IMG/VR virus record: IMGVR_UViG_3300042890_001480
Coordinates: 1-58,796 of that record
DNA from: a virus
Taxonomy: Duplodnaviria; Caudoviricetes
Direction: 5' to 3' (one strand)
Length of the DNA: 58,796 bases
Shown here in pieces: positions 1 through 48,300 of this stretch. The translations under genes and the position numbers were made by a program. Under the pieces are notes generated by a model, which worked only from the letters and a program-made list of their open reading frames with translations, was not told the DNA's origin and did no database searches. Within the stretch, counting starts at the first letter, position 1. The number at the start of each line of letters is the position of its first letter.

Positions 1-72
1 CTTGATACCGCCATGATTATATTCGAACAATAGTTCGTTATAGATTAAGTCTAGGTTAGACATGTTAGACAT
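1..72 (-). CDS. hypothetical protein, 5' part only (runs off window)
   Basis: ATG at 72 overlaps the upstream stop (TAATG); open MSNMSNLDLIYNELLFEYNHGGIK to the window edge. Confidence 0.55.
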   Translation of the reverse strand, partial: MSNMSNLDLIYNELLFEYNHGGIK

Positions 73-519: not shown

Positions 520-592
520 TGGAGATTAGCTCAGCAGGCAGAGCGGGAAGCTGTTAACTTCTAGGTCCTAGGTTCGAATCCTAGATCTCCAG
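520..592 (+). tRNA. tRNA-Asn(GTT)
   Basis: Acceptor TGGAGAT/ATCTCCA, D stem GCTC/GAGC, anticodon loop CTGTTAA, T loop TTCGAAT; U1-A72 and G73 as typical for Asn; CCA not encoded. Confidence 0.93.
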
Positions 593-603
593 CTATTACA
601 TTT

Positions 604-674
604 GCGAATATTGCATAGTGGTAGTGCGTAACCTTGCCAAGGTTAATGTGAGAGTTCGATTCTCTCTATTCGCT
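604..674 (+). tRNA. tRNA-Gly(GCC)
   Basis: Acceptor GCGAATA/TATTCGC, anticodon arm TAACC-TTGCCAA-GGTTA, T arm GAGAG-TTCGATT-CTCTC, U73; CCA not encoded. Confidence 0.93.
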
Positions 675-677
675 CTC

Positions 678-707
678 TTGACCTAACAAAATCTATTATG
701 CTACAAT
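678..707 (+). promoter_or_regulatory. sigma70/sigA-type promoter
   Basis: TTGACC-18nt-TACAAT with extended -10 (TGcTACAAT); predicted +1 near 714. Confidence 0.7.
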
Positions 708-713
708 TCTAAC

Positions 714-913
714 CTTGGATAGTTTTCGGAGATAATATCAAGGGGTTAAACTCCAAGTGCGACAATGACGGAAGTGTTATTAGTCTTGGCTTATATATCC
801 AGTATAAGTTCAACCGATGAATTGCGGGTTTACTACCTTTAGACAATTTCGGGGGATCCTTAAAAGATTTAAGGGGTGTAGGGGTTGTATGCTCTAAATC
901 TGGAAGTATCCAA
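714..913 (+). ncRNA. candidate ~200-nt structured ncRNA, family unknown
   Basis: Begins at predicted +1; 715-730 pairs with 899-913 (15 bp, one bulge, 3 G-U); several internal hairpins; GC-richer than flanks; no plus-strand ORF in the track. Confidence 0.6.
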
Positions 914-977
914 TAAAAAGAAAATATAAGATATATACTTAAAAATAAAAATTCTATTAACATTTAATATCATCTAA

Positions 978-999
978 TATTCTAGTCAACTAAGATATA
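978..999 (+). repeat. 22-bp direct repeat, copy upstream of HNH gene
   Basis: TATTCTAGTCAACTAAGATATA, 21/22 identical to 1329-1350; 14-nt partial copy at 483-496. Confidence 0.8.
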
Positions 1000-1036
1000 T
1001 ATCCAGATTATAATAATTAAAAGATATACTTAGTCT

Positions 1037-1324
1037 ATGAAGTCGGATAAGACGACTGATCGAAAACATAAAGCTCATCTGATAAAGTATATTCAGGAGT
1101 TAAAATCTTCTACTCCTTGCTTAGATTGTAAAATATCCTATCCATACTATGTTATGGACTTTGACCATGTTAGAGGAACTAAGCAAGCAAATGTGGCGGA
1201 ATTGATTAATACCTTATCCAAGAAGAAAATAGATCTAGAGATAGCTAAATGTGAGATAGTATGTTCTAATTGTCATCGTATTAGAACTCATCATAGGAAA
1301 ATTAAGAAAAAGGATAAATCTTAG
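1037..1324 (+). CDS. small HNH endonuclease
   Basis: CxxC (CLDC), DFDH, CxxC+H (CSNCHRIRT) zinc-binding HNH pattern; TATACT 6 nt before ATG (leaderless). Confidence 0.85.
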   Translation: MKSDKTTDRKHKAHLIKYIQELKSSTPCLDCKISYPYYVMDFDHVRGTKQANVAELINTLSKKKIDLEIAKCEIVCSNCHRIRTHHRKIKKKDKS

Positions 1325-4267: not shown

Positions 4268-6202
4268 ATGTCAACAGTTATTGAAAACCCATATGAAAAT
4301 TTTATTGCATTGTCTCGTTACGCAAGGTGGATTCCAGAAGATAATCGCAGAGAAACTTGGGGAGAAACAGTAGATCGTTATTTTACTTTTATGCTTGATC
4401 ATTTATTTAAAGAGTATTCTTATGAACCATCAAGCAAATTAATCCAGGAATTAAAAGAAGCAGTTCTTAATAGAAATGTTATGCCCTCAATGAGAGCGGT
4501 AATGACATCTGGTGCAGCATTAGAAAGAGATCATGTCGCAGGATACAACTGTTCTTTTATTCCAGTAGATTCACCAAGATCATTTGATGAAACAATGTAT
4601 ATTCTTATGTGTGGAACTGGAGTAGGATTTTCTGTAGAGTATAAGTATATTAATAAACTTCCTTCCGTTCCAGAATCTTTAGAAAAATCAACAACAGTTA
4701 TTTCTGTAGAGGATTCAAAACAGGGTTGGGCAAAAGCATATCGTGAATTACTAGCGCTACTTTGGTCTGGACAAATTCCAGCAATTGATGTAACTAAACT
4801 TAGGCCAGCAGGAGCAAGACTTAAAACTATGGGTGGAAGATCTTCTGGTCCACAACCACTTATTAATCTTTTTGATTTTACAATTAAAATATTTAAAAAC
4901 TCAGTTGGAAGAAATTTAAAGCCAATTGAATGCCACGACATTATGTGTAAAATTGGAGAAGTTGTTGTAGTTGGCGGAGTCCGTAGATCTGCAATGATTT
5001 CACTATCTAACATTAATGACATTGAAATGGCGGCAGCTAAATCAGGAAATTGGTGGGAAAATAGTCCACAGAGAGCGTTATCAAATAACTCAGTTGCTTA
5101 TTCTAGAAAACCAGAAATGGCACAATTTATCACAGAATGGAAAAATCTTTATGACTCAAAATCTGGAGAGCGTGGAATCTACAATGTTGCCGCTGCTCAA
5201 GCGCAAGCAGCTAAATATGGAAGACGGGATCCTGAAATACACTATGGAACAAACCCTTGTTCGGAAATTATTTTGCGTCCTTATCAGTTTTGTAATCTTT
5301 CAGAAGTCGTATTACGTGAAAAAGATACAGTTGAGGATGTCGAGAATAAAGTAAGACTTGCTACTATTTTAGGAACATGGCAATCAACATTAACAGACTT
5401 TAAATATCTACGTAAAATTTGGAAAGATAATACAGAAGAAGAAAGACTATTAGGGGTATCTCTAACTGGTCAATTTGGACACAAGTTCTTCTCTGGAAAA
5501 CAAGGCCTAGATAAACTAGAATCTACACTAGTATCTCTTCGTGAGCAGGCAAGAAAAACAAATAAAGAAGAGGCTAAAAAAATTGGCATACAGGAGTCTG
5601 CGGCAATTACCTGTGTAAAGCCTTCGGGAACAGTATCTCAATTAGTAGGGGTTTCTTCAGGAATGCACCCATGGCACTCTAGGTATTATATTCGTACGGT
5701 TCGTGGCTCTAAAGGAGATCCAATTTCTACATTTTTAAAAGAGGTTGGAATACCAGTAGAAGATGATGTTATGAAACCAACAGATACTTATGTATTTTCA
5801 TTTCCTATAAAAGCACCAGAAGATGCAATTGTAAGAAACGACCTAACGGCTATTGATCACCTAAACACTTGGCTAGTATATCAAAGAGCATGGTGTGAGC
5901 ATAAGCCATCAATTACAGTTTCAGTAAAAGAAGATGAGTGGATGGAAGTTGGGGCATGGGTATATAAAAACTTTGATGAAGTTTCTGGTATTTCGTTTTT
6001 GCCGTCTTCAGATCACTCATACAAACAAGCACCATATCAGGAAGTAACAAAAGAGGAATACGAAGACTTGTTATCTAAGATGCCAAGATCTATTCGTTGG
6101 GAAGATTTATCTTTTTATGAAACTGAAGATGGAACATCTACAAATGCTACGTTGGCCTGTAGTTCAGACGGCAATTGTGAGCTTGTTGATATTTCTGCTT
6201 AA
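4268..6202 (+). CDS. nrdJ: class II (adenosylcobalamin-dependent) ribonucleotide reductase
   Basis: YNC, NPCSEI, TCVKPSGTVSQL, C-terminal CSSDGNC; no nrdB adjacent. Confidence 0.9.
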   Translation: MSTVIENPYENFIALSRYARWIPEDNRRETWGETVDRYFTFMLDHLFKEYSYEPSSKLIQELKEAVLNRNVMPSMRAVMTSGAALERDHVAGYNCSFIPVDSPRSFDETMYILMCGTGVGFSVEYKYINKLPSVPESLEKSTTVISVEDSKQGWAKAYRELLALLWSGQIPAIDVTKLRPAGARLKTMGGRSSGPQPLINLFDFTIKIFKNSVGRNLKPIECHDIMCKIGEVVVVGGVRRSAMISLSNINDIEMAAAKSGNWWENSPQRALSNNSVAYSRKPEMAQFITEWKNLYDSKSGERGIYNVAAAQAQAAKYGRRDPEIHYGTNPCSEIILRPYQFCNLSEVVLREKDTVEDVENKVRLATILGTWQSTLTDFKYLRKIWKDNTEEERLLGVSLTGQFGHKFFSGKQGLDKLESTLVSLREQARKTNKEEAKKIGIQESAAITCVKPSGTVSQLVGVSSGMHPWHSRYYIRTVRGSKGDPISTFLKEVGIPVEDDVMKPTDTYVFSFPIKAPEDAIVRNDLTAIDHLNTWLVYQRAWCEHKPSITVSVKEDEWMEVGAWVYKNFDEVSGISFLPSSDHSYKQAPYQEVTKEEYEDLLSKMPRSIRWEDLSFYETEDGTSTNATLACSSDGNCELVDISA

Positions 6203-8609: not shown

Positions 8610-8849
8610 ATGTCTGTAAAAAGATTAGTCCCTCTTAATGCAGTAGAACTATCCACAGACCCAACGGGTGCACGTCGTGGAGACATTTATTATAATACTG
8701 CTGTAGAAGAACTTAGAGTATATGATGGCGTGTCCTGGACTCCAATATCAGGATTAGCAGACCATCTTCATACGTACGACGGTGCAATTTATTCAGTGGG
8801 CAATATAACCTATCCAATGGATCCTGTAATTGATGGCGGCACTCCATAA
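8610..8849 (+). CDS. small fibre-associated protein
   Basis: GDIYYNT...LRVYDGVSW motif, ends IDGGTP; coupled to next gene. Confidence 0.7.
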   Translation: MSVKRLVPLNAVELSTDPTGARRGDIYYNTAVEELRVYDGVSWTPISGLADHLHTYDGAIYSVGNITYPMDPVIDGGTP

Positions 8850-11800
8850 TGGCTACTAATTACCCTAACTCATTAGATAACTTTACAAATCCAACTTCTG
8901 CCAGCCCAATAAATAGTCCATCTCATTCAGAGCAACATGCAAATGCTAATGATGCAATAGAAGCTATTGAAGGTGAATTAGGAACTAATCCAAAGGGTGC
9001 GAAAGCAACAGTTAAAGTTCGTCTTGATGATGTTGATACTGCAATTGCTACTAAAGCACCTATTGATTCCCCAACATTTACTGGCACAGTAACAATTCCA
9101 TCAGGTTCAGCAATTACTGGTGTTCCGTATCTTGCTACCGCCAATACTTTTACTGGAAATAATACTTTTGCTTCACCAATTGTAGGTTTTGTTGGAACTG
9201 GTGGCACATATTCATCTGCAGCCGTATCTGCATATAACATAATACATTTAAGCCAGGGAATGATTCTTATAAATAGTCAAACTGGTGGCGACTATAACTT
9301 GGCTACAAATACTTATTATAATTCAGGATGGAAATATTTTGAAAGTTCCCCATCAACTCTTTTAAATTTTGGTAATGGAAACATTGACTTTAATACTGCT
9401 GCATCTGGAACTGCTGGAAATACAATAACTTTTACAAGTAAAATGAAAATCAACAATTCTGGAAATGTTACTATAAATGGTTTTGGTGCATCTACCGTAG
9501 GTTTAATTGTAAAAGGCGCAACCTCCCAAACTGCAGATTATTTCCAAATTCAAAATTCATCAGGGACAGTTGTAGTTAAGGCTGATTCCTCAAACAGTAT
9601 TGCAGTGCCATTTGGCCAAATTAGTGCAGCATCAGGATTAATCGGCTCAGGCACAACAAGACTTGGAACTGCAGGCGTTACTGCTTATGCAAGTGCAGCC
9701 ACTAGCAATGGAATTATTGTTCGTGGTGCAGCCTCCCAAACTGCCAAACTTCAGGAATGGCAAAACTCAGCTGGAACTGTCGTTGCAAGTACCAGCGTAG
9801 AAGGTAACGGATATTTTCAAGCAAATTTAAATGCCGCATCTATAGGCGCAGGAAATAATATAGGAGGAGCAAGCTTAACCGCATCTCCTTGGAGTGCTGT
9901 AACTACCGTTTCTATAATTAGAGGATATCCATCTCAGTCTGCCGATTTAACTAAATGGCAAAACTCAGATGGGACTGTGTTGTCTGGAATCAGCCCCATC
10001 GGACAATCTTTTGTTCAGACTACTGCACCCATTACGGCAAGTGCTATATCTCAAAGCATTACTGCTGTTTCATTTACATCAACAACTGCAACATATACAT
10101 TTTCGGCTACTGAACAAACTATTTCTATTGGTGAATACGTTACAGTTTATGGAATAACTCCATCAGGATACAATGGCACATATCAGGTTACAGCAGTTGC
10201 CACTGTTTCTGGTGGTACTTCTTATTCATTCACCGTTGCAAATACCACAAATGCTACTGTCACAGTTGGAACAGGGTACTTTTTTCCCTCTGCTTCTGTA
10301 AGTATTTCAACTAAAAATAAAGCACATACTGGTTTAATTATTAAGGCAGTATCAGGACAAACAGCATCTGTGCTGGAACTTCAAAATTCATTAGGTCAGC
10401 CCGCTACTTGGTTTGATTCAACAGGTGGAATGACAGCATCACAAGCCGTAGTATCAACATTGTATTCAGGTGGATTTATGAATACAGGAACGCTTGGATA
10501 TTTTAATGCTACAACATTTAGTTCATCAGTAATACCAGTAGTAGTTCGTGGAACCACCTCACAGGCAACAGATTTAACTCAATGGCAGAACAGTTCTGGT
10601 ACTTCTTTAGCAAGAATTTCTAATACAGGTATTTTTGTAGGCGGCTCCTTTTCATCTAATGGTTCACAAGCAGCAGGAACAAATATTGCGTCTCAATTTG
10701 GTTCAACATCTGCTACACGTATACCTATGGTTGTATATGGTGCAGCATCACAAACTGCCAACCTTCAGGAGTGGCAGGACAGTGCTGGAGCTGTACTTTC
10801 TAGCATTTCAGCATCTGGAGGATTTACAGTTCCTTCTTTGACGGTTTCTGGAGACTTAACTGTAAACGGAACCACTACAAATATTAATTCTACTAATCTT
10901 GTTATAGAAGATAAAAACATTGTGCTTGGAGATACAACAACTCCAACAGATATAACTGCCGATGGCGGAGGTATTACACTTAAAGGCACAACCGATAAAA
11001 CATTCAACTGGGTTGACTCCACAGACTCTTGGACTTCATCAGAACATTTAAATCTTGCTTCAGGAAAGTCACTATATTTAAACGGAACACTGTTAAAAGA
11101 TGCTACAGAAACTTTAACTAATAAGACTCTTACATCCCCAAAAATTAATGAAGATGTAGCAGTTACAGCAACAGCAACAGAGATTAATGTATTAGATGGG
11201 ATTACTTCAACTACCGCAGAACTTAATATTTTAGACGGGGTAACATCAACAGCAGCAGAACTTAATATTTTAGACGGGGTAACATCAACAGCAGCAGAAC
11301 TTAATATTTTAGATGGAGTTACAGCGACAGCTTTAGAGATAAACGTTCTTGATGGAATTACATCATCTACCGCAGAGATTAATATCCTTGACGGAGTTAC
11401 AGCAGACTATACCGAATTAAATATACTTGATGGAGCAACTCTTTCTACAACTGAATTAAATTATGTAGATGGCGTAACATCATCAATTCAAACTCAGATA
11501 GATACCAAGGCTCCACTTGCTTCTCCTACTTTTACTGGTACCGTCACAATTCCAGCAAATTCAGCAATTACTGGTGTTCCTTATCTTGATACCGCTAATA
11601 CTTTTACCAATAGCCCACAAGAGATTGCAAATACAAGCACAAGCGCTATCCAATTAATTTTAAGAACAAATAGTGGACAAACAGCAGATAATTTCCAAAT
11701 AAAAAATATTACCAACACTGTAAACTTTCGCATCTTTGGTGGTTCATTTGGTGCTGACGGAGTCGCTTCAATCGGTAACGCAACATTACCAACAACGTCG

Positions 11801-14800
11801 CAACTTTACGTACAAGACAATAACGCTGCTAGAGTAGGTTTAATTATTCGTGGCGCTACATCTCAAACTGCTAGCCTACAAGAATGGCACAACTCTGCGG
11901 GAAGTGCGTTGGCTTATGTTGATAGCTCTGGTACTATTCGTTCTGCAATTTTTGGCTCGCTTTCAGCAGGTCTTACGACTATGCGAACAAATTATGATAC
12001 TAACGGAATTGGATTTCAAATAGGTAGCGCTGGTCAAAAAGGATTGGTTATCCGTGGCTTCGCCTCACAAACTGAAAATCTTCAGGAGTGGCAGAACAGT
12101 AGTGGTACGTTGCTGTCCTGGATTCACCCTGCTGGATACCTTACACTAGGTTCTGCAACTACTATTGGTGGAGTTCTTGGTATAAGCACGGGTGTCTCAA
12201 CTGCCAGAGGTATTGTTGTCCGAGGTGCTGCCTCACAATCTGTCAATCTTCAAGAGTGGCAAAACAGTGCTGGAGGGGTAATTGCTTCAATTGGTCCTGC
12301 TGGAAGCATAACAACAAATAGTAATATTACTCAAGGCACTTCTGGAAGAACATTTATCGGTGGAGCAGCAGACGCTGGTGCATTTTTAAATGTAGGTAGT
12401 GCAACGACAACAAGGCAAGTAATTGTAGCACGTCCAAATTTTGCGACACAATCCGCTAGTCTCCAAGAATGGCAAAACTCGGCTGGGACCGTTCTTTCAG
12501 GAATTAATGCTGCTGGACAAATTCATACAGGCACTACTACAAGCATTAATGGTTCAATAACAGGGACAATTATATCGACTACTTATGTATCAAGCACAGT
12601 TGCCACCTTTGAATACAATGGCACATCACTTGTGCAAGTAGGACAGAGAGTAACAATTGGAGATCCTTACGGCAATTATAGTGGTAATGGATTTGCTGGA
12701 ACTTGGACAGTCACAGCAGTTACATCAAATACTTTCACAGTACTTGGCTCAGGGTTTTCAGATTATATTGTTGCGCCAGAAGCAGAGGATGGAACATTTA
12801 CTTTATCTGCCGCTGGAAGTTTTGTTGCTAATACTGCTGTAACTACTCCAGTGGTTGTCAAGGGAGTTACATCACAAACCGCTAATCTTCAGGAGTGGCA
12901 GAACAGTGCTGGTGGAGCTTTACTTAATATAGATTCAACAGGCAATTTAGATATAGGTGCTGGCTCTAGCAATATATGGAAAATAAAAAACCAAACCTCA
13001 GCAGTAATGGAATGGCAACCAAGTCAAGGATTTATGTTTTTGCCATATGGATCATCTAATAGACCCGTAACAATTAAAGGCGCAGCAAGTCAAACAGCCA
13101 ACCTAACCGAATGGCAGGATAGCACTGGAGCTGTACTTTCTAGCATTTCAGCATCTGGAGGATTTACAATACCTTCTCTTACAGTATCTGGAGACTTTAC
13201 TGTAAATGGTACAACAACAAATATAAATACAACTAATTTAATTGTAGAAGATAAAAATATTACTATTGCAGATGTTGCTACTCCTACTGATACTACCGCC
13301 GATGGAGCGGGAATTACAATAAAAGGCGCTACAGATAAAACACTTAATTGGGTACAATCAACAGGCTCATTTACATCATCAGAACCGTTTATAATAAATA
13401 CAAATTCAACAACTAAGCAAAATCTTATTGTTAAAGGAATTGCATCCCAAACTGCTAATCTTCAAGAATGGCAAAATAGTGCTGGCAATGTGATAGCCTC
13501 TGTCTATAAAGATGGCATTTCAATTCAAAACAATGAGACAAACTTTCCACGAGGACTTACTATTACGCAGTCCACCAATAATATTGCAGCAGCAGCATTT
13601 ATTGCACGAAAAAGTAGGGGTACAAATGAATCACCTGTTGTTGTTAATACGGGAGATATTGTTGGTGCCTTTGGATTCACTTCGTATAACGGTACTACTT
13701 ACCCTATAGATACCACACTATTTGGTGCAGCGGTAACAGATAAAAGTGGTTCTACTATCTCACAAAGCCTTTACTTTACTACTGGATCAAACAGTAATGG
13801 TAATTATGTTCCTAATTTACTGGTTTATCATGATGGAAGAGTAGGCGTAGGTGCAGGCTTTGGAAATATAACTTCAACAATTAATCAACCATCTGCTACT
13901 TTGCACATTGGTTCGCTAGCCGCTAACACAGTTGTCGCTCTAGTCAAAGGCGCAGCGTCACAATCAGTTAGCCTTCAAGAGTGGCAGAATAATTCTGGTA
14001 CAGCGTTGGCATCAATCGGAGCAACTGGTGCTTTACGTATTTCAGGTTCATTAGGGTATATGGGAGGCGGAGGAAGTCAATTAGTATTTCAAGCAGGAAA
14101 TAATGCTGCCTATTTTACTGTCACATCTTTGGCGGGGGCGTATCCATCCTTAATCATAAGAAGTATTACATCTCAAACTTCTAATCTTCAACAATGGCAA
14201 AACTCGGCTGGAACTATTTTTTCAGGAATAAATGCCGCTGGACAAATATTCGCAGGGACTACCACAAGCATCAATGGTTCAACTACTACGGAAATCACAT
14301 CGGCTGCATTTACATCAGCTACAGTTGCGGTCTTCACCTATGGCGGCACATCACTTGTGCAAGCAGGACAGGCAGTTACAGTTGCAGGTGTAACAGGTGG
14401 TACATACAACGGTACTTGGACAGTTACAGCAGTTACATCAACAACTTTCACGGTCCTTGGTTCAGGATTTACAGATGTAGCAGGTACAGGTGGAACATTT
14501 ACTTTGTCTGCCGTTGGAAGTTTTGTTTCAGGTACGGCAGCAATTACTCCAATAGTTGTTCGTGGCGCAGCATCACAAACTGCCAATCTCCAAGAGTGGC
14601 AGAATTCTGCAGGGACTATATTGCCAAGCATTGGTCCAAATGGAACAATGAATTTAAAGTCTGTAAGTTCAGCCAATCTTGTAACTTTCTTTAATGGTAC
14701 AAGCGGATTCGGCGCAGGAAACATAAGTTATAATGGAATATTTAATATTAATGCTGCAAATATGGGATTTCCATATACAGCATCTGGCGCAACGCTTTCT

Positions 14801-15463
14801 GTAAATGCAACATCAGCAACAGTAGTTCCAATTACTTCTAGAGGCTTTGCCTCACAAACTGGTGACTTACAGCAATGGCAAAATAGTGCTGGCACTGTAT
14901 TAGCTTCTGTTGCTAGTGGTGGCGGTATTTTGGCAAATTCTTTTAGCGCTGTTAATGGTATTGTAACAGGTTCATTATCGTTTTCTAGCATTTCTTATAA
15001 CGGATTTTCCAATCCTGCTGGAATTCTAACTAATCCAACTGTAGTAATACGAGGAATAGCCTCACAAACTGGTGACTTACAGCAATGGCGGGGTAGTGCC
15101 AATACAATACTTGCAAAAGTTGATGTAAATGGTAATTTTTCTGCAATCTCAAAGTCATTTGATATCCCTCACCCAACAAAAGAAAATATGCGTCTTCGTT
15201 ATGCATCTCTTGAAGGAAATGAGCATGGAATATATGTTCGTGGAATTACAAAAGAAAAAATTATTGAATTGCCAGAATATTGGACTAATTTAGTAGATGA
15301 GTCTACTATTACTGTTTCTCTAACTTCTATTGGTAAATTCCAAAAAGTTTATGTAGAAAAAATTGAAGGTAATAAAATTTATATCGGCGGGAGAGTTAAA
15401 GAAATCTCCTATGCAGTATTTGGAGAGCGTAAAGATATAGATAAACTAATAGTGGAGTACTAA
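8849..15463 (+). CDS. giant repeat-built tail fibre/adhesin (2204 aa)
   Basis: About 19 copies of GxxSQTAxLQEWQNSxG, 8 ELNxLDG repeats, C-terminal KSFDIPHP...LEG chaperone-like domain. Confidence 0.85.
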   Translation: MATNYPNSLDNFTNPTSASPINSPSHSEQHANANDAIEAIEGELGTNPKGAKATVKVRLDDVDTAIATKAPIDSPTFTGTVTIPSGSAITGVPYLATANTFTGNNTFASPIVGFVGTGGTYSSAAVSAYNIIHLSQGMILINSQTGGDYNLATNTYYNSGWKYFESSPSTLLNFGNGNIDFNTAASGTAGNTITFTSKMKINNSGNVTINGFGASTVGLIVKGATSQTADYFQIQNSSGTVVVKADSSNSIAVPFGQISAASGLIGSGTTRLGTAGVTAYASAATSNGIIVRGAASQTAKLQEWQNSAGTVVASTSVEGNGYFQANLNAASIGAGNNIGGASLTASPWSAVTTVSIIRGYPSQSADLTKWQNSDGTVLSGISPIGQSFVQTTAPITASAISQSITAVSFTSTTATYTFSATEQTISIGEYVTVYGITPSGYNGTYQVTAVATVSGGTSYSFTVANTTNATVTVGTGYFFPSASVSISTKNKAHTGLIIKAVSGQTASVLELQNSLGQPATWFDSTGGMTASQAVVSTLYSGGFMNTGTLGYFNATTFSSSVIPVVVRGTTSQATDLTQWQNSSGTSLARISNTGIFVGGSFSSNGSQAAGTNIASQFGSTSATRIPMVVYGAASQTANLQEWQDSAGAVLSSISASGGFTVPSLTVSGDLTVNGTTTNINSTNLVIEDKNIVLGDTTTPTDITADGGGITLKGTTDKTFNWVDSTDSWTSSEHLNLASGKSLYLNGTLLKDATETLTNKTLTSPKINEDVAVTATATEINVLDGITSTTAELNILDGVTSTAAELNILDGVTSTAAELNILDGVTATALEINVLDGITSSTAEINILDGVTADYTELNILDGATLSTTELNYVDGVTSSIQTQIDTKAPLASPTFTGTVTIPANSAITGVPYLDTANTFTNSPQEIANTSTSAIQLILRTNSGQTADNFQIKNITNTVNFRIFGGSFGADGVASIGNATLPTTSQLYVQDNNAARVGLIIRGATSQTASLQEWHNSAGSALAYVDSSGTIRSAIFGSLSAGLTTMRTNYDTNGIGFQIGSAGQKGLVIRGFASQTENLQEWQNSSGTLLSWIHPAGYLTLGSATTIGGVLGISTGVSTARGIVVRGAASQSVNLQEWQNSAGGVIASIGPAGSITTNSNITQGTSGRTFIGGAADAGAFLNVGSATTTRQVIVARPNFATQSASLQEWQNSAGTVLSGINAAGQIHTGTTTSINGSITGTIISTTYVSSTVATFEYNGTSLVQVGQRVTIGDPYGNYSGNGFAGTWTVTAVTSNTFTVLGSGFSDYIVAPEAEDGTFTLSAAGSFVANTAVTTPVVVKGVTSQTANLQEWQNSAGGALLNIDSTGNLDIGAGSSNIWKIKNQTSAVMEWQPSQGFMFLPYGSSNRPVTIKGAASQTANLTEWQDSTGAVLSSISASGGFTIPSLTVSGDFTVNGTTTNINTTNLIVEDKNITIADVATPTDTTADGAGITIKGATDKTLNWVQSTGSFTSSEPFIINTNSTTKQNLIVKGIASQTANLQEWQNSAGNVIASVYKDGISIQNNETNFPRGLTITQSTNNIAAAAFIARKSRGTNESPVVVNTGDIVGAFGFTSYNGTTYPIDTTLFGAAVTDKSGSTISQSLYFTTGSNSNGNYVPNLLVYHDGRVGVGAGFGNITSTINQPSATLHIGSLAANTVVALVKGAASQSVSLQEWQNNSGTALASIGATGALRISGSLGYMGGGGSQLVFQAGNNAAYFTVTSLAGAYPSLIIRSITSQTSNLQQWQNSAGTIFSGINAAGQIFAGTTTSINGSTTTEITSAAFTSATVAVFTYGGTSLVQAGQAVTVAGVTGGTYNGTWTVTAVTSTTFTVLGSGFTDVAGTGGTFTLSAVGSFVSGTAAITPIVVRGAASQTANLQEWQNSAGTILPSIGPNGTMNLKSVSSANLVTFFNGTSGFGAGNISYNGIFNINAANMGFPYTASGATLSVNATSATVVPITSRGFASQTGDLQQWQNSAGTVLASVASGGGILANSFSAVNGIVTGSLSFSSISYNGFSNPAGILTNPTVVIRGIASQTGDLQQWRGSANTILAKVDVNGNFSAISKSFDIPHPTKENMRLRYASLEGNEHGIYVRGITKEKIIELPEYWTNLVDESTITVSLTSIGKFQKVYVEKIEGNKIYIGGRVKEISYAVFGERKDIDKLIVEY
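11171..11482 (+). repeat. 39-bp (13-aa) tandem repeat, 8 copies
   Basis: TAAELNILDGVTS-type units; exact 39-nt DNA periodicity at about 11216-11313. Confidence 0.85.
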
Positions 15464-33475: not shown

Positions 33476-35056
33476 ATGGAATTTATAAACGACGAAGAGT
33501 CATCAGATCAAATTTTTATATCAAACGATTCCGATTGGATTAAATTTAATAAAAAGCCAGTTGTAGAAAATGATCCATTTAAAATTGAAGGCGCAGAATT
33601 AAAAAAAGTTAATGGACTAGGTTCATCATTTAGACGTAAAGTCTCAAGAGATTTACAAAAAAGATTTGTAGGTCAAGACGACACAGGAACACAGCAAAAT
33701 TTATTAGCACAAGCAGTAACTGGCTATGCGATGTTCGATCTTATTGAGCCTCCATATAATTTAGAATATCTTTCTAGGATTTATGAAATATCTCCATACA
33801 ACTATGCAGCAATTAATGCAAAGGTTGCAAACATTGTCGGATTAGGATTTTCTTTTGTAGAAACTCGTAAAGCAAACGAAGCACTTGATAGCATTTCAGA
33901 TGGAAGACAGTTAGAGAGAGCACGTCGTAAATTAAATAAACTTCGTCAGGACCTAGATTCTTGGCTAGAAGAAGTAAATGAAGAAGAAACATTTACAGAA
34001 ACATTAATTAAAGCTTATGTGGATTTAGAAGCAACAGGAAACGGCTACATCGAAATAGGCAGAACAACTGCTGGCAACATTGGATATATTGGTCATATTC
34101 CTGCAAAGACAATGCGGGTACGCAGACTTCGTGACGGCTTTATTCAATTGCTTTATGGCAAGGCAGTATACTTTAGAAACTTTGGAGATCAAGAAACTGA
34201 GAATCCAATTGCAGATGGATCAGATCGTCCAAATGAAATTATTCACCTAAAGAAATATACCCCTATGAATAACTATTACGGAATACCAGACATTATTGCA
34301 GCACAAAATGCAATGGCAGGTAACGAGTTTGCTGGAAAGTATAACTTAGATTACTTTGAAAACAAAGCAGTCCCAAGATATATCATTACAGTTAAGGGTG
34401 CTAAATTAGCTCCAGAGTCAGAACGGAAGTTATTAGAATTTTTCCAAGTAGGACTTAAGGGTAAAAATCACAGATCTCTATACGTACCACTTCCAGCTGA
34501 TAGCGCAGACTCAAAGGTTGAATTTAAAATGGAACCAATCGAGGCAAACTCTCAAGAGTCTTCATTTAATGTATATCGTAAATCAAATAGAGATGAAATA
34601 CTTTTGGCTCATAGAGTTCCAATTAGCAAAATCGGATTACCTGAAGGAGTCAATTTGGCTTCAGCTAGAGACTCAGATAAAATGTTTAAAGAGCAGGTAT
34701 GCCGTCCAGCACAGGATATTTTAGAAAAGAAATTAAATAAAATAGTTGAAGAAAAAACAGATGTGCTATTAATTAAATTTAATGAATTAACCCTGACCGA
34801 TGAAGATACTCAGTCTAAAATAGACGAGAGATATTTAAGAATGCAGGTAATTACCCCTAATGAAGTTAGAATTAGAAAGGGCATGGTCCCAATCGATGGC
34901 GGAGATTCAATTGTTCAATTAAAGCCACAACAGGCTGCTGAGCAAACTGCACAGGCTATGAATTCTCGTCAAAGAACTCAAGATCGGGATGCTAATTCTC
35001 CAGATATTTCTGGGGAGGCTAGAAATCCAAAAGGCGAGGGTAGAGTAACCTCTTAA
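33476..35056 (+). CDS. portal protein
   Basis: D.EATGNGYIE, EIIHLK, YYGIPD, YFENKAVP, ILLAHRVP, ITPNEVR motifs; precedes protease and capsid. Confidence 0.92.
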   Translation: MEFINDEESSDQIFISNDSDWIKFNKKPVVENDPFKIEGAELKKVNGLGSSFRRKVSRDLQKRFVGQDDTGTQQNLLAQAVTGYAMFDLIEPPYNLEYLSRIYEISPYNYAAINAKVANIVGLGFSFVETRKANEALDSISDGRQLERARRKLNKLRQDLDSWLEEVNEEETFTETLIKAYVDLEATGNGYIEIGRTTAGNIGYIGHIPAKTMRVRRLRDGFIQLLYGKAVYFRNFGDQETENPIADGSDRPNEIIHLKKYTPMNNYYGIPDIIAAQNAMAGNEFAGKYNLDYFENKAVPRYIITVKGAKLAPESERKLLEFFQVGLKGKNHRSLYVPLPADSADSKVEFKMEPIEANSQESSFNVYRKSNRDEILLAHRVPISKIGLPEGVNLASARDSDKMFKEQVCRPAQDILEKKLNKIVEEKTDVLLIKFNELTLTDEDTQSKIDERYLRMQVITPNEVRIRKGMVPIDGGDSIVQLKPQQAAEQTAQAMNSRQRTQDRDANSPDISGEARNPKGEGRVTS

Positions 35057-35075: not shown

Positions 35076-35104
35076 TTGCCTTTTGACGTATACAAGTATA
35101 AAAT
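35076..35104 (+). promoter_or_regulatory. promoter of protease/capsid operon
   Basis: TTGCCT-17nt-TAAAAT, 7 nt before ATG 35112; the TTG start in the ORF track is the -35 box. Confidence 0.6.
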
Positions 35105-35111
35105 TAAGCAT

Positions 35112-36446
35112 ATGAATATTGAAAAATCTAATTGGTCTTCTAATGGCGATAATATTATTTTATCTGTTCCATTCACAAAAGTTAATCGTGAAAAAAGAAC
35201 AGTTTCTGGATTTGCCACACTAGACAATCTAGATCAAACAGGCGACGTAGTAACAGCAGATGCAAGCCTTAAAGCTTTTGAAAACTTTAGAGGAAATCTC
35301 CGTGAGATGCATCAACCAGTTGCAGTGGGCAAGGTAGTTTCTTTTAAACCAGAAACATTTTATGACCCAGCAACAAAAGAATTTTTTAATGGAGTGTATG
35401 TAGACGCATATATTTCAAAAGGCGCCCAGGATACTTGGGAAAAGGTTTTAGACGGAACCCTTCAAGGTTTCTCAATTGGCGGTAAAATAATTGAGTCAGA
35501 CAATGAAGTAAATAAATCAACAGGTAAGACTGTTAGATTTATTAAAGACTATGACTTGATGGAGTTATCAATTGTAGATTCTCCAGCGAATGAATTATGC
35601 AGCATTGTTTCAATTCAAAAAGTTAATGGACAGCTAGTATTTAAAGGAATGGCCGCAGAAGTTGTAACAGAAAATATTTTTTACTGTACAGAAAGCGACT
35701 CTGTTTTTATTTCAACAGAGAAGACATATGAATCACCAGTAACTGGTAAACCAGCAGAGCTAATCGGTTGGGTAGAAAGTTCAGATGTCAATAAAGGAAA
35801 AGAAATAGATAGAATTCTTGCTTCATTTAAGAAGTCAAGATTACCGTTGCCTGCAATACAAACAATTGCAAAACAGGCAAACGCAGAAGGAGGTAATGAA
35901 GTGTCAGAAAACACAGAAAACGTAGTTGTAGAAGATGCAGCAGCAGAAGTTGCAGCACCAGAAACAGCCGTAGAAACTCCAGCAGTTGCAGAAGATGCAG
36001 CAGTTGAAGAAGCACCTGTAGAGAATACAGTTGCAGACGCTTCTGCCGAAACTCTGGAAAAGGCAGCCGACGTATCAGAAGTTGAGGTTGATGAACCTGA
36101 TTTTGCAAAGATGCTAGGTGACCTAAAAGGCTTTTTCTCAGAAACTTTAACAAAAGCTTCTGAAGCAAATGCTATTCAGGTTTCAACAATTAAAGATACT
36201 GTTGAAACATTTAGCAAGAGCGTTGAAGGCCGAATTTCAGAATTGGCAGAGAAACACACAGCACTAAGTAATGCTGTAACAGAAATACGCAACACCATCA
36301 ATGGTGTAGAAAAGCGTGTCGATGCAGTAGAATCAGAGACTGCAATTAAGAAGTCCTCAGACCTTGGCGGGTCTCAGGAAGTAACAATTAAAAAATCTAA
36401 ATGGAACGGTTCTTTCCTCGGTTCCGTACAGGAAATTTTCAATTAA
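35112..36446 (+). CDS. HK97-type prohead protease fused to scaffold domain
   Basis: REMH, GFSIGG, ELSIVDSPAN; acidic Ala/Glu linker and coiled-coil C-terminus. Confidence 0.9.
   Translation: MNIEKSNWSSNGDNIILSVPFTKVNREKRTVSGFATLDNLDQTGDVVTADASLKAFENFRGNLREMHQPVAVGKVVSFKPETFYDPATKEFFNGVYVDAYISKGAQDTWEKVLDGTLQGFSIGGKIIESDNEVNKSTGKTVRFIKDYDLMELSIVDSPANELCSIVSIQKVNGQLVFKGMAAEVVTENIFYCTESDSVFISTEKTYESPVTGKPAELIGWVESSDVNKGKEIDRILASFKKSRLPLPAIQTIAKQANAEGGNEVSENTENVVVEDAAAEVAAPETAVETPAVAEDAAVEEAPVENTVADASAETLEKAADVSEVEVDEPDFAKMLGDLKGFFSETLTKASEANAIQVSTIKDTVETFSKSVEGRISELAEKHTALSNAVTEIRNTINGVEKRVDAVESETAIKKSSDLGGSQEVTIKKSKWNGSFLGSVQEIFN
35901..36446 (+). CDS. nested in-frame scaffold protein (181 aa)
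   Basis: SD AAGGAGGT (35887-35894) 6 nt before in-frame GTG. Confidence 0.6.
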   Translation: MSENTENVVVEDAAAEVAAPETAVETPAVAEDAAVEEAPVENTVADASAETLEKAADVSEVEVDEPDFAKMLGDLKGFFSETLTKASEANAIQVSTIKDTVETFSKSVEGRISELAEKHTALSNAVTEIRNTINGVEKRVDAVESETAIKKSSDLGGSQEVTIKKSKWNGSFLGSVQEIFN

Positions 36447-42344: not shown

Positions 42345-45300
42345 ATGGCTGACGAAAATATAGTCACGAATATAGTCGCTAAAGCCGACTTTTCAAATCT
42401 TATTGCAGATCTTAATAAGGTTTCATTTTCGTTAAGTAAATTACAAGATCAGCTAGTAGCTTCTAACAAAATGTTGGCAGCTCAAGTTGGTGTAATGAAT
42501 AGGTCATTTGCCGATACTTTAAGAAGTACTGGTCAATTTTCTACCCACTTTGTTAGCCTTTCATCTGATGTAGAAAAATTTGGTTCTCAGCTAGATAGAG
42601 GCCAGATGAGACTTGGAAAGTTTTTCCAAGTTTATCGTCAACACGCAACTTCTACTGGCGGATTAGTAAGAGATTTAGCAAAGCAACAAGTACAATTACA
42701 AAACGCAATTATGCAACCCTTGGGCAAAAATGCTCAAGGGTTAATGCAATATAATGTTCATATTCCAAGAGGCTTAGATTTAATAAAAAATAAATCTTTA
42801 ATAGCAAGACAAGAACTACAAATTATGAATAAGGTAGTTCAAGAAGGCGCTAATTCATTAATTAACTGGGGTAAAAATACTCAATGGGCAGGACGTCAGT
42901 TAACAGTAGGATTAACCGTACCACTAGCAGCATTTGGGAAAGCATCAGCAGATGCATTTAAGCAAGCAGATGAACAATTAGTTCGTTTAACAAAGGTTTA
43001 TGGCGGAGTAGCAGCAGTATCAGCACAAGAACTTGGAAAAGTAAGAGCTGACGTTTCAAAAACTGCAGAAGATTTAGCAAAGTCATACGGCTCATCATTT
43101 AAAGATACAATTGCTTTAGCTGCAGATATTGCAGCAACTGGAAAACAGGGTAATGATTTATTAGGATCTATACGGGAAACAACACGTCTAGCCGTCCTTG
43201 GTGAAGTTGATAGACAAGATGCAATGAAGGCTACTCTAGCAATTCAAACAGCATTCAAACAAAATACAGAAGAATTAGCAGAATCAATTAACTTTTTAAA
43301 CGCAGTTGAAAACCAAACATCAACTACCCTTAATGACTTAGTAGAAGCAATTCCAAAGGCTGGACCAATTATTAAAGGACTTGGCGGGAGCATACAAGAT
43401 TTGGCATTATATTTAACAGCAATGCGTGAAGGTGGAATTAATGCTTCTGAAGGAGCTAATGCTTTAAAGTCAGGTCTTGCCTCGCTTATTAACCCAACTA
43501 AAGTTGCAAAAGATTTATTTAACGGATTTGGAATATCTTTAACAGATATTGTTCAAAAAAATGCAGGAAATACAACTGCAACAATATTAGAATTACAAGC
43601 AGCATTAGAAACATTAAACCCGCTTCAAAAGCAACAGGCACTAGAACAATTATTTGGTAAATTCCAGTTTGCTCGTATGAATGCTTTGTTTGAAAATTTA
43701 GGAAAACAAGGAAGCCAGACTTTGCAAGTATTAGATTTAATGAAGGCTAGCTCCCAAGAATTAGGGGCATTGGCTACTCGAGAATTAGGACAAGTAACAG
43801 AATCGGCATCTGGTAAATATCGTAGAGCGGTAGAAGGATTAAAGGCAGATTTAGCTGGAATTGGAGAGCAGTTCTTAAAGATTAATACAAGTCTTATTAA
43901 TTTTGTTGATGGAATAATTAAGTTTGTTCAAAAATTACCAGATCCAATTAAACAAGCATTAGGATTTATGGGAATGTTAACGGCGGCGGCTGGACCATTA
44001 ATCATGTTAACTGGTGTACTCGGAAACTTCTTTGGTTATATTATTAAAGGTGCTTATCATTTTAAATCATTATTTAAAGGTGGAGAAGGATGGAGGCTAT
44101 TAACTCCAGAAATTTTAGCAGCACAAAAAGCTGGTAATTTAGTAGAACAAACATTTTATAGTGATGCTAAAGCAGCAGCGGTATTAAAACAAGCAATTGC
44201 TGGACTAACTGCAGAGTTTACAATATTACAACAAAAAGCATCATCTGCTGCAATGTCAGTTAATCCCGCCATATCAACAACTGCTGGTAATGTTATAGTT
44301 GCAGGCCCAAGAGTTGTAAATCCTAACCATCCGCTTGTAGGCAAAATAGACACAAGAGCTGCTACACACCATAATCCAAGAGGATTGATGAATCAAGCAC
44401 AAAGAGATGCCCAAACAATTCACTCTGTTACTCCTGGATCAATTGATGTAAATCAAAAAATAGGAACTGTTCCTCAAATATTTATGGCAGGAGATATGCC
44501 AAAAATTGAAGGATTAACATCTTCAAGAGGTGCTTCTACGGGAATAGTGGCTGGAGAGGCAGCAAAGTGGCATGCGCTTATGGGATCCCTATCTATGTTA
44601 AGTAAAAGAGAAGTTGCTACATTAAAGAAAGAAATTGCAAGAACTGGAACCTTTAGCGAAGATATAAGTAACACTTTTAGTCAATTGTTAGTGCCAATGA
44701 CAGATATAACTACAAATGCTGCTAATAGATCTGCTCAAATAGTTGCTCAATTACAATCTGGAAAAATTACAATGGAAGCTGCTCGTGCAAAAATTATTGC
44801 ATTAAATACAGAAATAGAAGCAATGATGGCTGCGGCAACAACGCAAGTTGCAACATCGTTAGGCAGAACTGCAAGTTTAACTCAAGTCCCTCTTACTTCA
44901 CAAGCCATTGTAAGTAATACTGGAAAAGCAAACTTAAAAGAAATATTTAGGCCTGGCAGAAAAGGTAAAACAATAGTTGATACTATTGCCAGGGCCCTTG
45001 GAGTAAGAACATATGGCGCTGGATATTCAACAGAAACAACAATGCCAAAGAAACTTGCAACAGGCGGAATGGTTGTTCCTGGACCAAGATCGGACACAAC
45101 AGATACTCAATTTATGAATTTAATAGAGGGAGATGTCGTATTAAATAGAAAAGCATCAGATGCCTTAATGGGATATAACAAGGGCGGCAGAGTAGTACCA
45201 GCAATGGTAACTCCTGGAGAAATTATAGTTAACAATCCAACACCAGAAGAAGCTGAAATGCTTTTAGCCTACAATAATCAATTTGCAGTCGGCGGCAGGG

Positions 45301-48300
45301 TAATGGCTTCAAAAAATAATTATGGAAATCCACCAATAGGTCTTGTTCTAAAACAATTAATGACTAGAAGAAATGCTGGAACAAGAGCTAGAGCAGAAAC
45401 AAGAATGGGCGAATACAGAGGTCATTCTTGGTTAGCTCAAGGAAATGCTACAAAAACAGCAATTGATAATTATTTATCTGGTATACCAAAAAATAAAAGA
45501 TTAGAGGCAGCACGGGCAATTGAATCTTTTGGATTTAAGTTAAAATCAACTGGTGGAAGAAATAAAGATATAACTGCAAGTACACATTCTAGAAGCGCTA
45601 AAACTTTAGAGACTAAGCATTTAATAGATGGAGATTTATCTAAAGATTTAACAAAAATTACAGGAGTAAGCCCTAGTGATGCACTTGGGGCCATGACTCA
45701 TGCTACACATTTAACTAAAGCTAAAATAATTAATGGTAAGAGAATGGTAAGCAGATATACAGTAGACTATGATGCCTCATCAAATTTGCAAGCTAATACT
45801 GGTTCTTTAAAGGTTGGAGATTTTATTTCAAGAAATCTTGAAAGACTTGATAAATACAACGTTCAAATGAATGCTGCTGGCGTACCACTTGATAAAAATA
45901 TTAGAAAAAAAATAGAAAAAAATATAGATAAAAATATTAAGTCATATTTATTAGCTAAATCTGGTGGCAATAAAGATATGCTTATGAGTGATAATAAACC
46001 AGGAACTATTAATTTAGAAGAATTAATTCCATTTATTGATAATGAAATAATATCTAATGGTGGAAATGCGGTTAATTTAAATAAATTAAAAAATTTAACA
46101 CAAGTTAGAAAACAATATAATTTAGGCGGAATGGTTGGGAAGGCTTTAGCTCCAAAATTTAAATCACAATTAAATAAAAAATTAGGTATTACATGGGGAC
46201 AAGGATTAGCTGGAGACGGTCTTACAAACAATCCCCCAACCTCAGGATACGGAAACCTTGCTCTTCAAATTGGAATGGGTAAAAAATTATTTGGTGGATC
46301 TGGTTTAACTCCTAGAGCACAAAACTTAATGTACGATGCTTTAGCAAAAGAACTTGAACAAACAACTCCTGATACTTACCTAAAAGTTCAAGGTGTTAGA
46401 GGACCAAAATTAGCAAGAGCAATGGATCCAAGTCAAACAAACGGAATGTTATTTGGTGCCGCTTCTACAGTAGCAGGGCATCGTGGAATTAGTAAAAAAG
46501 ATAGAGAAATACTTGCATTATGGTCTTCTGATCCATTTAAAAACAATTATCCAAAAGGATTGCTCAGTAAAATAACTGGAAAAATGTTTGGATATAATCG
46601 TGGCGGAATGGTTTCAATGCCGCCACAAATTCCAATTCCAGCCCAAGATGGAAAATATAATATGGGTGGAGTTGTTGGCGGAAGAGTACGTAGTGGAAAA
46701 CATAATTATGGAATACCAGGACTAGACATTTCTGGATTAAATCAACCTGCACTAATTGAACAAATGGGCCTACAGTCGGCAGAGAGACAGGGACCATTAT
46801 CTGCATTTACATCTGGACTTAGAAACCCTTATGGGAAATCTGCATTTATTAATCGCCAAATGCCAAAAATGGGTATGGGAGCCTCAATGGGAATTGGAAT
46901 GGGCGGTATGATGGCGGGAAGCATAATTGGCGGTGGTGCAGGACAAGCCGTGATGCTTGCATCTAGCATAGCATCAATGCTTCCTTATTTTGGAGGACTT
47001 TCTAAAGGAATAGGAATAGTTACAAAACTTGCTTCCGTACTTGGAAAATTAACAATTCCAGGAGCTTTAATTGGCAGCCTGGCTTTTGTAGGAAAATTAA
47101 TTTTAGATGCTAAAAATAATGCTGAAGATTTAGGAAAAGCAAATAGACTAGCATTTGGCGGTACACAGGAATCCTTTGCCTCTGTAGGAATTACAAAGTT
47201 TAAAACACTATCAGACAGAATGAAAGAAGTTAACGAACAAATAGACTTAAATAAAGCAAAAGCTCAATCTGCTTATGAACAATACACAAAAGGTGGTCCT
47301 ACAGGAATTACATTAAGTATAGCAGAGTTAAATGAGGCTATTGAAAATGCTAAAAAGAATCAAACTGAATACATAAACGCATTTAACAACATTGATAGTG
47401 GCGGAGTAAATAAATATGCTGCCGACCTTAAAGCACAATTTGTTGCTATGGGACTATCTGCATCAGAAGCATCTAATCAAATATATGCAATGGTAAAGGC
47501 TTCTGAAAAAGCAGGACAGGCATTGTCTGCAGTAACAACTAGCGATTTTAGAAACATTATAGATCAGACTACTGCTTTAACTAGACTATTTGACAATCTT
47601 GGAAAAGCATCAACTGTTAATAATTTTAATGTAGAAGAATTTGCAACAGGTCTAGATACATTAACAAGTTCAGTTATAGCATATCAAGAGGGTTTAATTA
47701 AAATAGATAAAATAGATCCTTCAAAATCAGTAGATTCTGCAAAATCCTTACAAATGACTATGGAAAAAATTGTAAAAATAGATGGCTCTAGGAGTACTTT
47801 AGGTATAAAACAGGTAGAAAGTTTAAAACAACAAAACGTTATTTATGCATCTATTTTAAAAGATACAGAATCTTTAGCAAGCATCACTGCAAAAATATTG
47901 TTATATCATAATGAATTAGGCAGAATAGTTGATTTATCTGCTATATCTGGCCCAGCCGCTATAATAATGGCCCAAAACTATGCAGATGTTTTAAATGGCA
48001 TAAATAAAATTACAGAAGACTCTTCAGACAATAATCCACTTAAAGCCTTAATTGATCCAATTAATAAAGCTAAAAAAACAAGTGCAGATTATGCAAAAGT
48101 AATAAATTCTGCACAAAAACAAGATGAGTCATATTATTCTAAAAAAATAAAAGCGATTGATTTAGAAATTAAAAAAATTAAAGATGCTGCAAATGAAAGA
48201 AGAAAAGCTTTGCAAGAACAGCAAAGCATGGAATCTACTGAGTTAGAAATTAAAAAGAAACAAATAGAGTATCAAGATGCCGTTGCTTCAGGAAATATGT

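Follow-up and report, generated by a model that had tools for sequence, protein, structure and literature searches.

What is the promoter-driven, folded stretch of DNA that lies next to a minimal HNH endonuclease gene near one end of a large viral contig, and does it act together with that nuclease? We addressed this question in IMG/VR record IMGVR_UViG_3300042890_001480, a viral contig of 58,796 bases (CheckV completeness 49%) that was analysed over its whole length and is called the window here; positions are counted from its first base. A sequence-only reading had described a structured RNA of ~200 nt at this place and suggested, as a hypothesis, that it forms an RNA-protein system with the HNH nuclease. 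We found that positions 712-916 of the plus strand form a stand-alone gene that specifies a non-coding RNA of ~200 nt with a pseudoknot. The RNA belongs to a new superfamily with three forms: type A (that of the window), type B and the shorter type C. What had been observed was partly confirmed and its interpretation partly supported, in that the non-coding RNA stands, several of the proposed helices do not, and the pairing with the HNH found no support.

A stand-alone gene for a pseudoknotted RNA

A covariance model built from related phages (R1), a check proposed with the sequence-only reading, matched the window only once, at 712-916 (+) with 203.4 bits, and its helices covary. From 585 relatives of the HNH gene, 80 HNH loci were taken, and in 24 of these nhmmer found the type A/B RNA upstream of the HNH gene and on the same strand. 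A 19-base pattern drawn from the most conserved stretch of the RNA occurred in at least 104 viral-contig stretches, 103 of them real and one (L157) a chance match. An independent search with another pattern, taken from the 3' half, brought 30 new loci, made up of 16 members and 14 chance matches inside coding regions. The type A/B RNA is therefore carried by at least 119 viral-contig stretches, and R1 gave exactly one match per locus.

Type C came to light at five loci anchored on an SLT-type lysozyme gene with the island fully covered, which gave no R1 match even with filters off. At one of them, L302, the same type of promoter is followed by a different, shorter RNA, and the five were found to carry this type C instead. 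nhmmer located this form in 38 loci, including 30 of the 80 HNH loci, as confirmed by a model of its own (R2), and a pattern scan found it in at least 120 further stretches, which reduce to 97 distinct contexts and 84 distinct RNAs of 131-169 nt. Two loci, L275 and L286, matched neither R1 nor type C. Type C has in common with types A and B a 5' GUUU-YGG / G-run motif and a 3' G-run / UA / G-run / CUAAA-AUCU segment, and some type C variants connect the forms by carrying short repeated words (described below) that are type A-like. On the strength of these shared motifs and words, we read A, B and C as one superfamily.

In large contigs, the two forms exclude each other. With R1, every one of five large type A contigs gave a single match; two of these contigs are 97-100% complete. 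The five type C genomes examined, all 92-100% complete, gave no R1 match, and R2 behaved the other way round, with a single match per type C genome and none in the type A contigs. Single reciprocal matches in 10 of 10 large contigs indicate a single-copy, apparently universal locus with alternative forms. If this holds, the RNA gene is widespread, with at least 239 viral-contig stretches, and apparently core to a large freshwater phage clade.

The RNA is preceded by a promoter at 678-707 (+), with a -35 element TTGACC (678-683), an 18-nt spacer and a -10 element TACAAT (702-707). The spacer ends in TGc, and the TG at 699-700 makes this an extended -10 promoter; a consensus scan scored it 10/12 plus TG. 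The claim of a strong promoter ahead of the RNA was borne out among the relatives. All 65 distinct type A/B upstream regions carry TTGACN (TTGCAT in one), N16-18 and TGnTANNNT, with the promoter stopping exactly 4 nt short of model position 1 in 65 of 65, and the same promoter type is found in 94 of the 97 type C contexts. From the position of the promoter, transcription is predicted to start at ~713-715. The conserved -35/extended -10 arrangement implies transcription by the host RNA polymerase, and promoters of this type would argue for a host with ordinary sigma-70-like recognition.

The homologues do not behave like protein-coding sequence. A frame is open across the RNA in 1 of 68 homologues on the plus strand and in 5 of 68 on the minus strand (6 of 136 strand-sequence combinations), and the homologue lengths spread evenly over the residues modulo 3. 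An 84-aa open reading frame (ORF) on the minus strand, at 709-963, was considered and rejected because frames are closed in most homologues and lengths are unconstrained modulo 3. The nucleotide sequence itself is strongly kept, with a mean column identity of 64% and ~100 invariant or nearly invariant positions among 58 distinct sequences, or ~45% of the RNA.

No family in Rfam 15 matches the RNA. At the gathering score, the whole window returned only two tRNAs; at E ≤ 10, no match in the region 400-1500 overlapped the RNA; and 705-925 alone returned only SmY, at 13.7 bits and E 0.83. RNase P, glycine riboswitch, ykkC and hammerhead were not among the cmscan matches for the RNA region. Full-text literature searches found no description of this RNA. 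PMC10690425 presents 8,495 candidate structured RNAs, 29-151 nt long and drawn from IMG/VR, and fragments of the present RNA may be among them. With its conserved promoter, its covariation, no Rfam match and no description found in the literature, the RNA has turned out to be what the sequence-only reading took it for, an undescribed phage non-coding RNA.

Folding favours the plus strand, as had also been proposed: 712-916 reaches -55.9 kcal/mol (z -2.2, equalled or bettered by 4 of 200 shuffles), versus -32.9 kcal/mol for the minus strand (z -0.06; 91 of 200 shuffles as good). Pairs were counted in a model-based alignment of 68 sequences, which is fitted to the model and hence somewhat favourable to it. 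Overall, 96.9% of the paired cells hold a pair, versus 80.7% in shuffles (0 of 500 reached the observed value) and 36-58% when the partners were slid. The helices Ha, P4 and P5 are 91-100% paired and together show compensatory changes at 21 pairs. Helix Ha (714-719/752-757; 100% paired, compensatory changes at 5 of 6 pairs) closes an almost invariant loop of 32 nt (720-751), and in type B the entire helix is exchanged for a different complementary strand pair. Helix P4 (814-828/836-852), with a 7-nt loop, is 100% paired in its outer and 94% in its inner part, with compensatory changes at 10 of 13 pairs. In hairpin P5 (857-863/869-875), where pairing stands at 91%, such changes occur at 6 of 7 pairs. 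The P4 loop forms a pseudoknot with the linker between the G-runs (830-833/878-881; 93.5% paired), in which one pair covaries (U-A 46, C-G 12, other 9). A further hairpin, P3 (790-795/803-808), appears in the minimum free energy fold just before the conserved AACCGAUGAA; the alignments, which are poor there, show a hairpin of varying length and sequence at this position.

This fold retains only some of the helices proposed before. In the 15-bp helix thought to join the two ends of the RNA, the outer part (715-721/907-913) is unconserved, conflicts with Ha and shows no compensation where Ha does; the inner part (722-730/899-907) is possible, being 93% paired. A hairpin at 742-754 clashes with Ha, and another at 761-785 is poorly kept (68% paired). 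The hairpin placed at 789-809 is present at ~790-808, with the variation just described, and that at 858-874 is P5; the hairpin at 865-901 that was to compete with the latter found no support. A G-quadruplex formed from the four G-runs was also considered and set aside, two of the runs lying inside covariation-supported helices.

Two identical words that change together

Within the Ha loop, an invariant GUUUUCGGA at 722-730 is complementary to two separate segments of the RNA, which we refer to as the word copies. Copy 1 (CGGAAGU, 769-775) can pair with it as Hb (722-728/769-775; 97% paired), and copy 2 (UCUGGAAGU, 899-907), which maintains identity with copy 1, can pair with it as Hc (722-730/899-907). 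The two pairings have the 5' strand 722-730 in common and are mutually exclusive. Copy 2 is bracketed by the pair 898-909, which covaries (U-A 29, A-U 27, C-G 2, other 9).

A mutual-information scan revealed couplings of the identical rather than the complementary type. Positions 774 and 906 read G/G in 55, A/A in 9 and G/A in 2 of 66 type A/B RNAs and are hence identical in 64 of 66; positions 745 and 884 read G/G in 47 and U/U in 20 of 67, with no mixed case. The coupled positions lie in two repeated modules, each composed of AGGGGUU, 15-21 nt and YGGAAGU. In the window, the twin AGGGGUU motifs are at ~740-747 and 880-886 (+), and it is their last G (745, 884) that co-changes. On a tree built without the coupled columns, 4 to 7 changes are found, with 745 and 884 changing 4 times each. 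For this pair, there are two independent tree pairs on supported branches and four when all branches are counted, all in the same direction; for 774 and 906, four independent tree pairs on supported branches likewise agree in direction.

The same behaviour extends to type C, where an identical word of 5-9 nt occurs at two places, in the middle and at the 3' end, in 84 of 84 RNAs. The longest common string averages 6.9 nt, versus 4.9 nt for random pairings. We distinguished seven classes of type C words, namely CCAGAU (the commonest), CCAAGU, CUAAGU, GGAAAU, CCGAGU, CCAGGU and CUAGAU; those of the form CYRRRU differ by transitions only. Word 1 and a complement that comes after it form a hairpin in many type C RNAs, and the 3' strand of this hairpin changes with the word; other type C RNAs have no such hairpin (read by eye and uncounted). 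A pair of words that is kept identical while the word itself changes between lineages is an evolutionary signature that implies a common partner, and we know of no such signature in other RNAs.

Other properties of the words were also assessed. Across 150 RNAs, the central triplet of the word consists of purines only (AAA, AAG, AGA, AGG or GAG), which read as codons would stand for Lys, Arg and Glu. Rolling or concatemeric coding between the words was rejected, the period residues 0/1/2 being 42/15/27 in type C and 21/19/26 in type A/B. A search for antisense targets in the window returned a longest complementarity of 12 nt, in variable parts of the RNA and at chance level by estimate.

Possible action of the RNA and the place of the HNH gene

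We consider it probable, though well short of assured, that the RNA is a stand-alone folded RNA whose twin words meet one common complementary partner, with the HNH gene as a bystander. It would work as a folded molecule and not as the leader of a particular gene, which is favoured by its independence of the downstream gene, its universal single copy, its conserved unpaired segments and its pseudoknotted fold. Since the two word copies evolve as identical copies, both would have to recognise one common complementary sequence. In type A, this would be the invariant GUUUUCGG loop of helix Ha, and the two exclusive loop-loop pairings might create either a bistable fold or a head-to-tail association of molecules. 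In many type C RNAs, the partner would be the strand that forms a hairpin with word 1.

Several observations weigh against this proposal. Hb and Hc are without compensatory changes, because their shared 5' strand never varies. Several type C RNAs have no internal complement of the word, so that a model of an internal switch does not cover the whole superfamily and an external nucleic-acid partner becomes possible, and the type B words, read by eye, are not clearly complementary to the Ha loop. The sole RNAalifold consensus helix of type C joins a pyrimidine-rich strand to the G-runs. Since G can pair with either pyrimidine, counting its pairs is uninformative, and as it carries no covariation signal, any structure of type C is tentative. 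The independent tree pairs, while all in the same direction, are underpowered (p 0.5 for 745 and 884, p 0.125 for 774 and 906). HNH genes are enriched near the RNA (45 of 61 loci), mostly at orthologous positions in related phages, and homing by the HNH is argued by analogy. Finally, the 5' end, the 3' end and the stability of the RNA are predicted, and two metatranscriptome contig sets from the same study, compared at 80% likeness, returned a single tRNA-like contig (603-676), which is uninformative on expression.

The HNH gene lies at 1037-1324 (+) and starts 120 nt after the RNA, as had been stated. Its 95-aa product matches phrog_3106 (E 7.2e-22), phrog_2255 (7.9e-21) and phrog_4234 (7.7e-8), all annotated as HNH endonuclease, and has no Pfam match at E 0.01; the window holds a single copy. 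The protein consists of the HNH only, with no RuvC or extra domain, which bears out the earlier remark that it is not IscB. The spacer between RNA and gene (917-1036) is AT-rich, 917-996 being 85% A+T, a value matched by 0.13% of the 80-nt windows in the contig. It contains a phage-type promoter-like motif ahead of the HNH, with TCTAGTCAACTAAG at 981-994 followed by TATAAT at 1009-1014. We found no terminator-like site on the plus strand from 916 to 1577.

Of 97 type A/B loci, 52 have an HNH gene in the 600 nt downstream of the RNA. For type C, with the limit set at 900 nt, this is so for 29 of 115 loci or, counted as distinct contexts, for 26 of 93. Among three near-complete genomes, only G010 has an HNH homologue, which lies ~100 nt downstream of the RNA; G001 (100% complete) and G008 (96%) carry the RNA but contain no such homologue at E 1e-3. 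A functional RNA-HNH pair is at odds with these figures. Counted from the nuclease, 61 HNH loci have at least 1 kb of upstream sequence, and at 45 of them an RNA of the superfamily lies on the same strand within 3 kb (19 type A/B and 26 type C, the latter counted by hand). Taken together, these data point to a mobile, probably homing-type, free-standing endonuclease gene that favours this island and is a bystander of the RNA. It often lands there probably because the RNA gene is an invariant landmark, and conserved RNA genes may serve as landmarks for mobile endonuclease genes. The locus thereby corrects the inference that a structured RNA beside an HNH gene amounts to an RNA-guided nuclease.

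The free-standing HNH homing endonucleases of T4-like phages offer a parallel: there, too, a small HNH ORF sits between genes, a variable region adjoins conserved sequence, and the gene is present or absent among close relatives. Those that have been characterised are mostly much larger than 95 aa, and the ORF of the window differs further in being without a Pfam match at E 0.01. A terminase-assisting role of the HK97 gp74 type, which had been mentioned as well, does not fit, as the gene is far from the portal and protease genes; its neighbours are tRNAs, the RNA and small leftward genes, and the terminase was not located.

The main rival to a stand-alone folded RNA, unlikely in our estimation, is an element of a replication origin, in which a promoter-fired, G-rich transcript forms an R-loop in the AT-rich flank and primes DNA synthesis, with the direct repeats as alternative-pairing primer segments or as iteron-like initiator sites. 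Promoter-driven structured primer transcripts of this kind are ColE1 RNA II and the T4 origin transcripts, and the likeness to the RNA II type comprises the promoter, the G-runs, the competing pairings and the AT-rich DNA after the transcript. The promoter is strong and host-type, the RNA is single-copy in all 10 large contigs tested, and its G-runs are 4-7 long (two G6-7 runs in the type C consensus, four G4-5 runs in the window). No terminator follows it in the window, the flank at 917-996 has the A+T content given above (median 75% in type C over the 80 nt after the RNA), and the locus is at the boundary between a leftward block of genes and a rightward island. The direct repeats that change in concert also resemble iterons, in which the variable part of the repeats changes in this manner. 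However, there are only two repeats, 76-171 nt apart, with no initiator gene identified nearby and, unlike in the ColE1 system, no antisense regulator. Cumulative GC skew in G001, G008 and G010 follows gene orientation, has no separate turning point at the RNA and so lends the origin no support. Near-invariance at ~45% of positions, compensatory helices and a pseudoknot are features that an R-loop primer need not have, and they suggest recognition of the folded RNA. The want of a terminator before the downstream genes in the window would also suit a cis-acting leader, a riboswitch- or attenuator-like 5' region with Hb versus Hc, or word 1 versus word 2, as its expression platform. We give this reading a slim chance. 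Two mutually exclusive pairings on one strand are what it would predict, and an ORF begins 25-45 nt after the RNA in type B, where it can encode a small zinc-ribbon protein, and at some type A and C loci; in the case of five type C RNAs, this ORF is that of the HNH, which starts ~44 nt downstream. Yet the first downstream ORF varies in family and lies anywhere from 3 to 1320 nt away, and many downstream genes, including the HNH of the window, stand behind their own phage-type promoter-like motif. Moreover, we observed no conserved intrinsic terminator or Shine-Dalgarno-sequestering helix, and the rightward unit extends only a short way before it meets leftward genes.

Readings in which the RNA serves a protein or an outside nucleic acid fared no better. 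That it guides, scaffolds or activates the 95-aa HNH is extremely improbable, even though the RNA is present at most HNH loci with sufficient upstream sequence, some type C loci have no promoter in the ~44 nt between RNA and HNH start, and the variable twin words have a superficially programmable look. A structured RNA beside an HNH-containing ORF also recalls HEARO/omega RNA and IscB. But the co-occurrence is non-obligate, and the two genomes with RNA and without HNH largely refute the idea; the RNA precedes the ORF and has a promoter to itself, Rfam gives no HEARO match, and IscB combines RuvC and HNH in several hundred aa. The words, furthermore, have only 5-9 nt and differ by transitions only. 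A packaging RNA (pRNA) like that of phi29, forming a multimer on the portal through loop-loop contacts as part of the packaging motor, is very improbable as well. The single copy of the RNA in every large contig tested and its host-type promoter would be in keeping with such a role, and in type A one receptor loop has two loops complementary to it, which would allow head-to-tail association. Known pRNA phages are small phi29-like viruses, and here we deal with large genomes that have ordinary portal and protease genes; Rfam shows no pRNA match, and Jay2Jay, Coruscant and Muntaha, cultured relatives whose portal is 57% identical, show no match to the RNA. We found no complementary covariation between two loops, the word copies being identical instead; the third loop, the complement of both, is invariant, so that covariation is not possible there. 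A decoy of the 6S or Ms1 kind would be a long rod with a central, open-promoter-like bubble, unlike this multi-helix, pseudoknotted RNA, and the RNA has no Rfam match to 6S or Ms1; we found no specific support for any of the guide, packaging and 6S-like ideas. There remains a programmable recognition RNA, in our view a long shot, which would use a lineage-set word of 5-9 nt, shown twice, to hold two molecules or sites of an external nucleic acid. In a concrete version, it would bind the anticodon loops of matching host tRNAs, the classic targets of anticodon nucleases, and act as a shield or decoy against these enzymes. In three complete genomes, the phage-carried tRNA genes do not track the word, which neither helps nor excludes this idea.

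Among described RNAs, the nearest analogues by context of the stand-alone folded RNA that we favour would be RNAC and RNAD of phage T4. To our knowledge, co-varying twin words have not been described for either. In PMC9697503, these small stable RNAs, encoded next to the T4 tRNA genes, are described as being of unknown function, and like the present RNA they are phage-encoded, non-coding, discrete and located in or near the phage tRNA region. The likeness is one of context: the paper classes them as late RNAs, in contrast to the host-type promoter found here, and adjacency to tRNAs is only partial in our set (28 of 77 contexts within 1 kb). GOLLD and ROOL are structured RNAs of unknown function from phage-like contexts. 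They, too, come from lake metagenomes, but are several-fold larger and represented in Rfam. According to bioRxiv 10.1101/2024.12.08.627333, GOLLD and ROOL form RNA-only multimers. For the RNA of the window, loop complementarity makes multimerisation a possibility.

Gene neighbourhood and carrier phages

The promoter of the RNA directly follows two tRNA genes, tRNA-Asn(GTT) at 520-593 (+) and tRNA-Gly(GCC) at 604-675 (+), which were called by both ARAGORN and Rfam (65.9 and 66.6 bits) and are context only, lying outside the RNA. A same-strand tRNA ends within 150 nt upstream of the RNA in 12 of 77 distinct contexts, and a tRNA occurs within 1 kb on either side in the 28 mentioned above, on the same strand whenever it is near.

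Gene order was compared in 87 distinct contexts and follows a conserved layout of small leftward genes, the rightward RNA, a variable rightward island, three leftward genes and a long rightward block. The three conserved leftward genes end in the SLT-type lysozyme, and the long block opens with a glycosyltransferase and a ribonucleotide reductase. The contents of the island vary and include the HNH, small proteins, 2OG-Fe(II) oxygenases, a sulfotransferase-like protein, DUF6065 and tRNAs; the oxygenases, the sulfotransferase-like protein and DUF6065 were seen in the islands of L162, L132, L144 and L177, and a GP88-family protein in the leftward block upstream. In several lineages, a zinc-ribbon-like protein of ~65-73 aa (MAKRINW.../MARFKHE..., with a C..C motif and no Pfam match) begins 25-80 nt after the RNA, namely in type B and at some type A loci (L147:1529-1738, L098, L104).

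A promoter-like module specific to these phages, consisting of TATTAACATTT, ~12 nt, T(C/A)TAGTCAACTAGGAT and then TATAAT, occurs in the window at 483-511, 961-1014 and ~1326-1360 and at many other loci (for example L087, L396 and L409). Copies stand ahead of the tRNAs, of the HNH and of numerous genes in the island, and the likeness to an activator box combined with a -10 element would point to middle or late promoters. Upstream of the module, we noted repeated CGGACATTTT(A/G) motifs (window ~335-355 and ~405-427; L302 ~4770-4790; L065), which are possibly operator sites.

The window encodes a portal protein (33476-35056) and a protease (35076-36446); Streptomyces phages that belong to the Stanwilliamsviridae have portals with 57-59% identity to the former. 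The carriers of the RNA are a clade of freshwater phages of ~105-117 kb that are, by portal, distant relatives of this family. R1 found nothing credible in Jay2Jay, Coruscant and Muntaha (best E 0.77), and in a blastn search against a phage collection only the tRNA matched. A pattern scan of cellular genomes returned 4 matches, about the chance expectation by estimate, of which only L193 was real. This contig of 1,061 nt was binned with a Bacteroidia metagenome-assembled genome and holds the first 70 nt of the RNA at 1-70 (-), with 89.7 bits; it may point to the host or result from faulty binning, and as evidence it is too weak for a host to be assigned.

Local irregularities were also seen. 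L178 has a partial copy of the RNA (4636-4772, 99 bits), followed by a second promoter and a full copy (4783-4991), a local tandem duplication. Many contigs have one of their ends no more than a few hundred bases from the RNA, among them the window (RNA from 712), G005 (18-233), L085, L093, L107, L110, L113 and L116, and this clustering of contig ends suggests assembly breaks at conserved sequence or a genome-end repeat boundary. The structural region of the window, finally, contains two very long ORFs, at 8849-15463 (2204 aa) and 42345-49508 (2387 aa).

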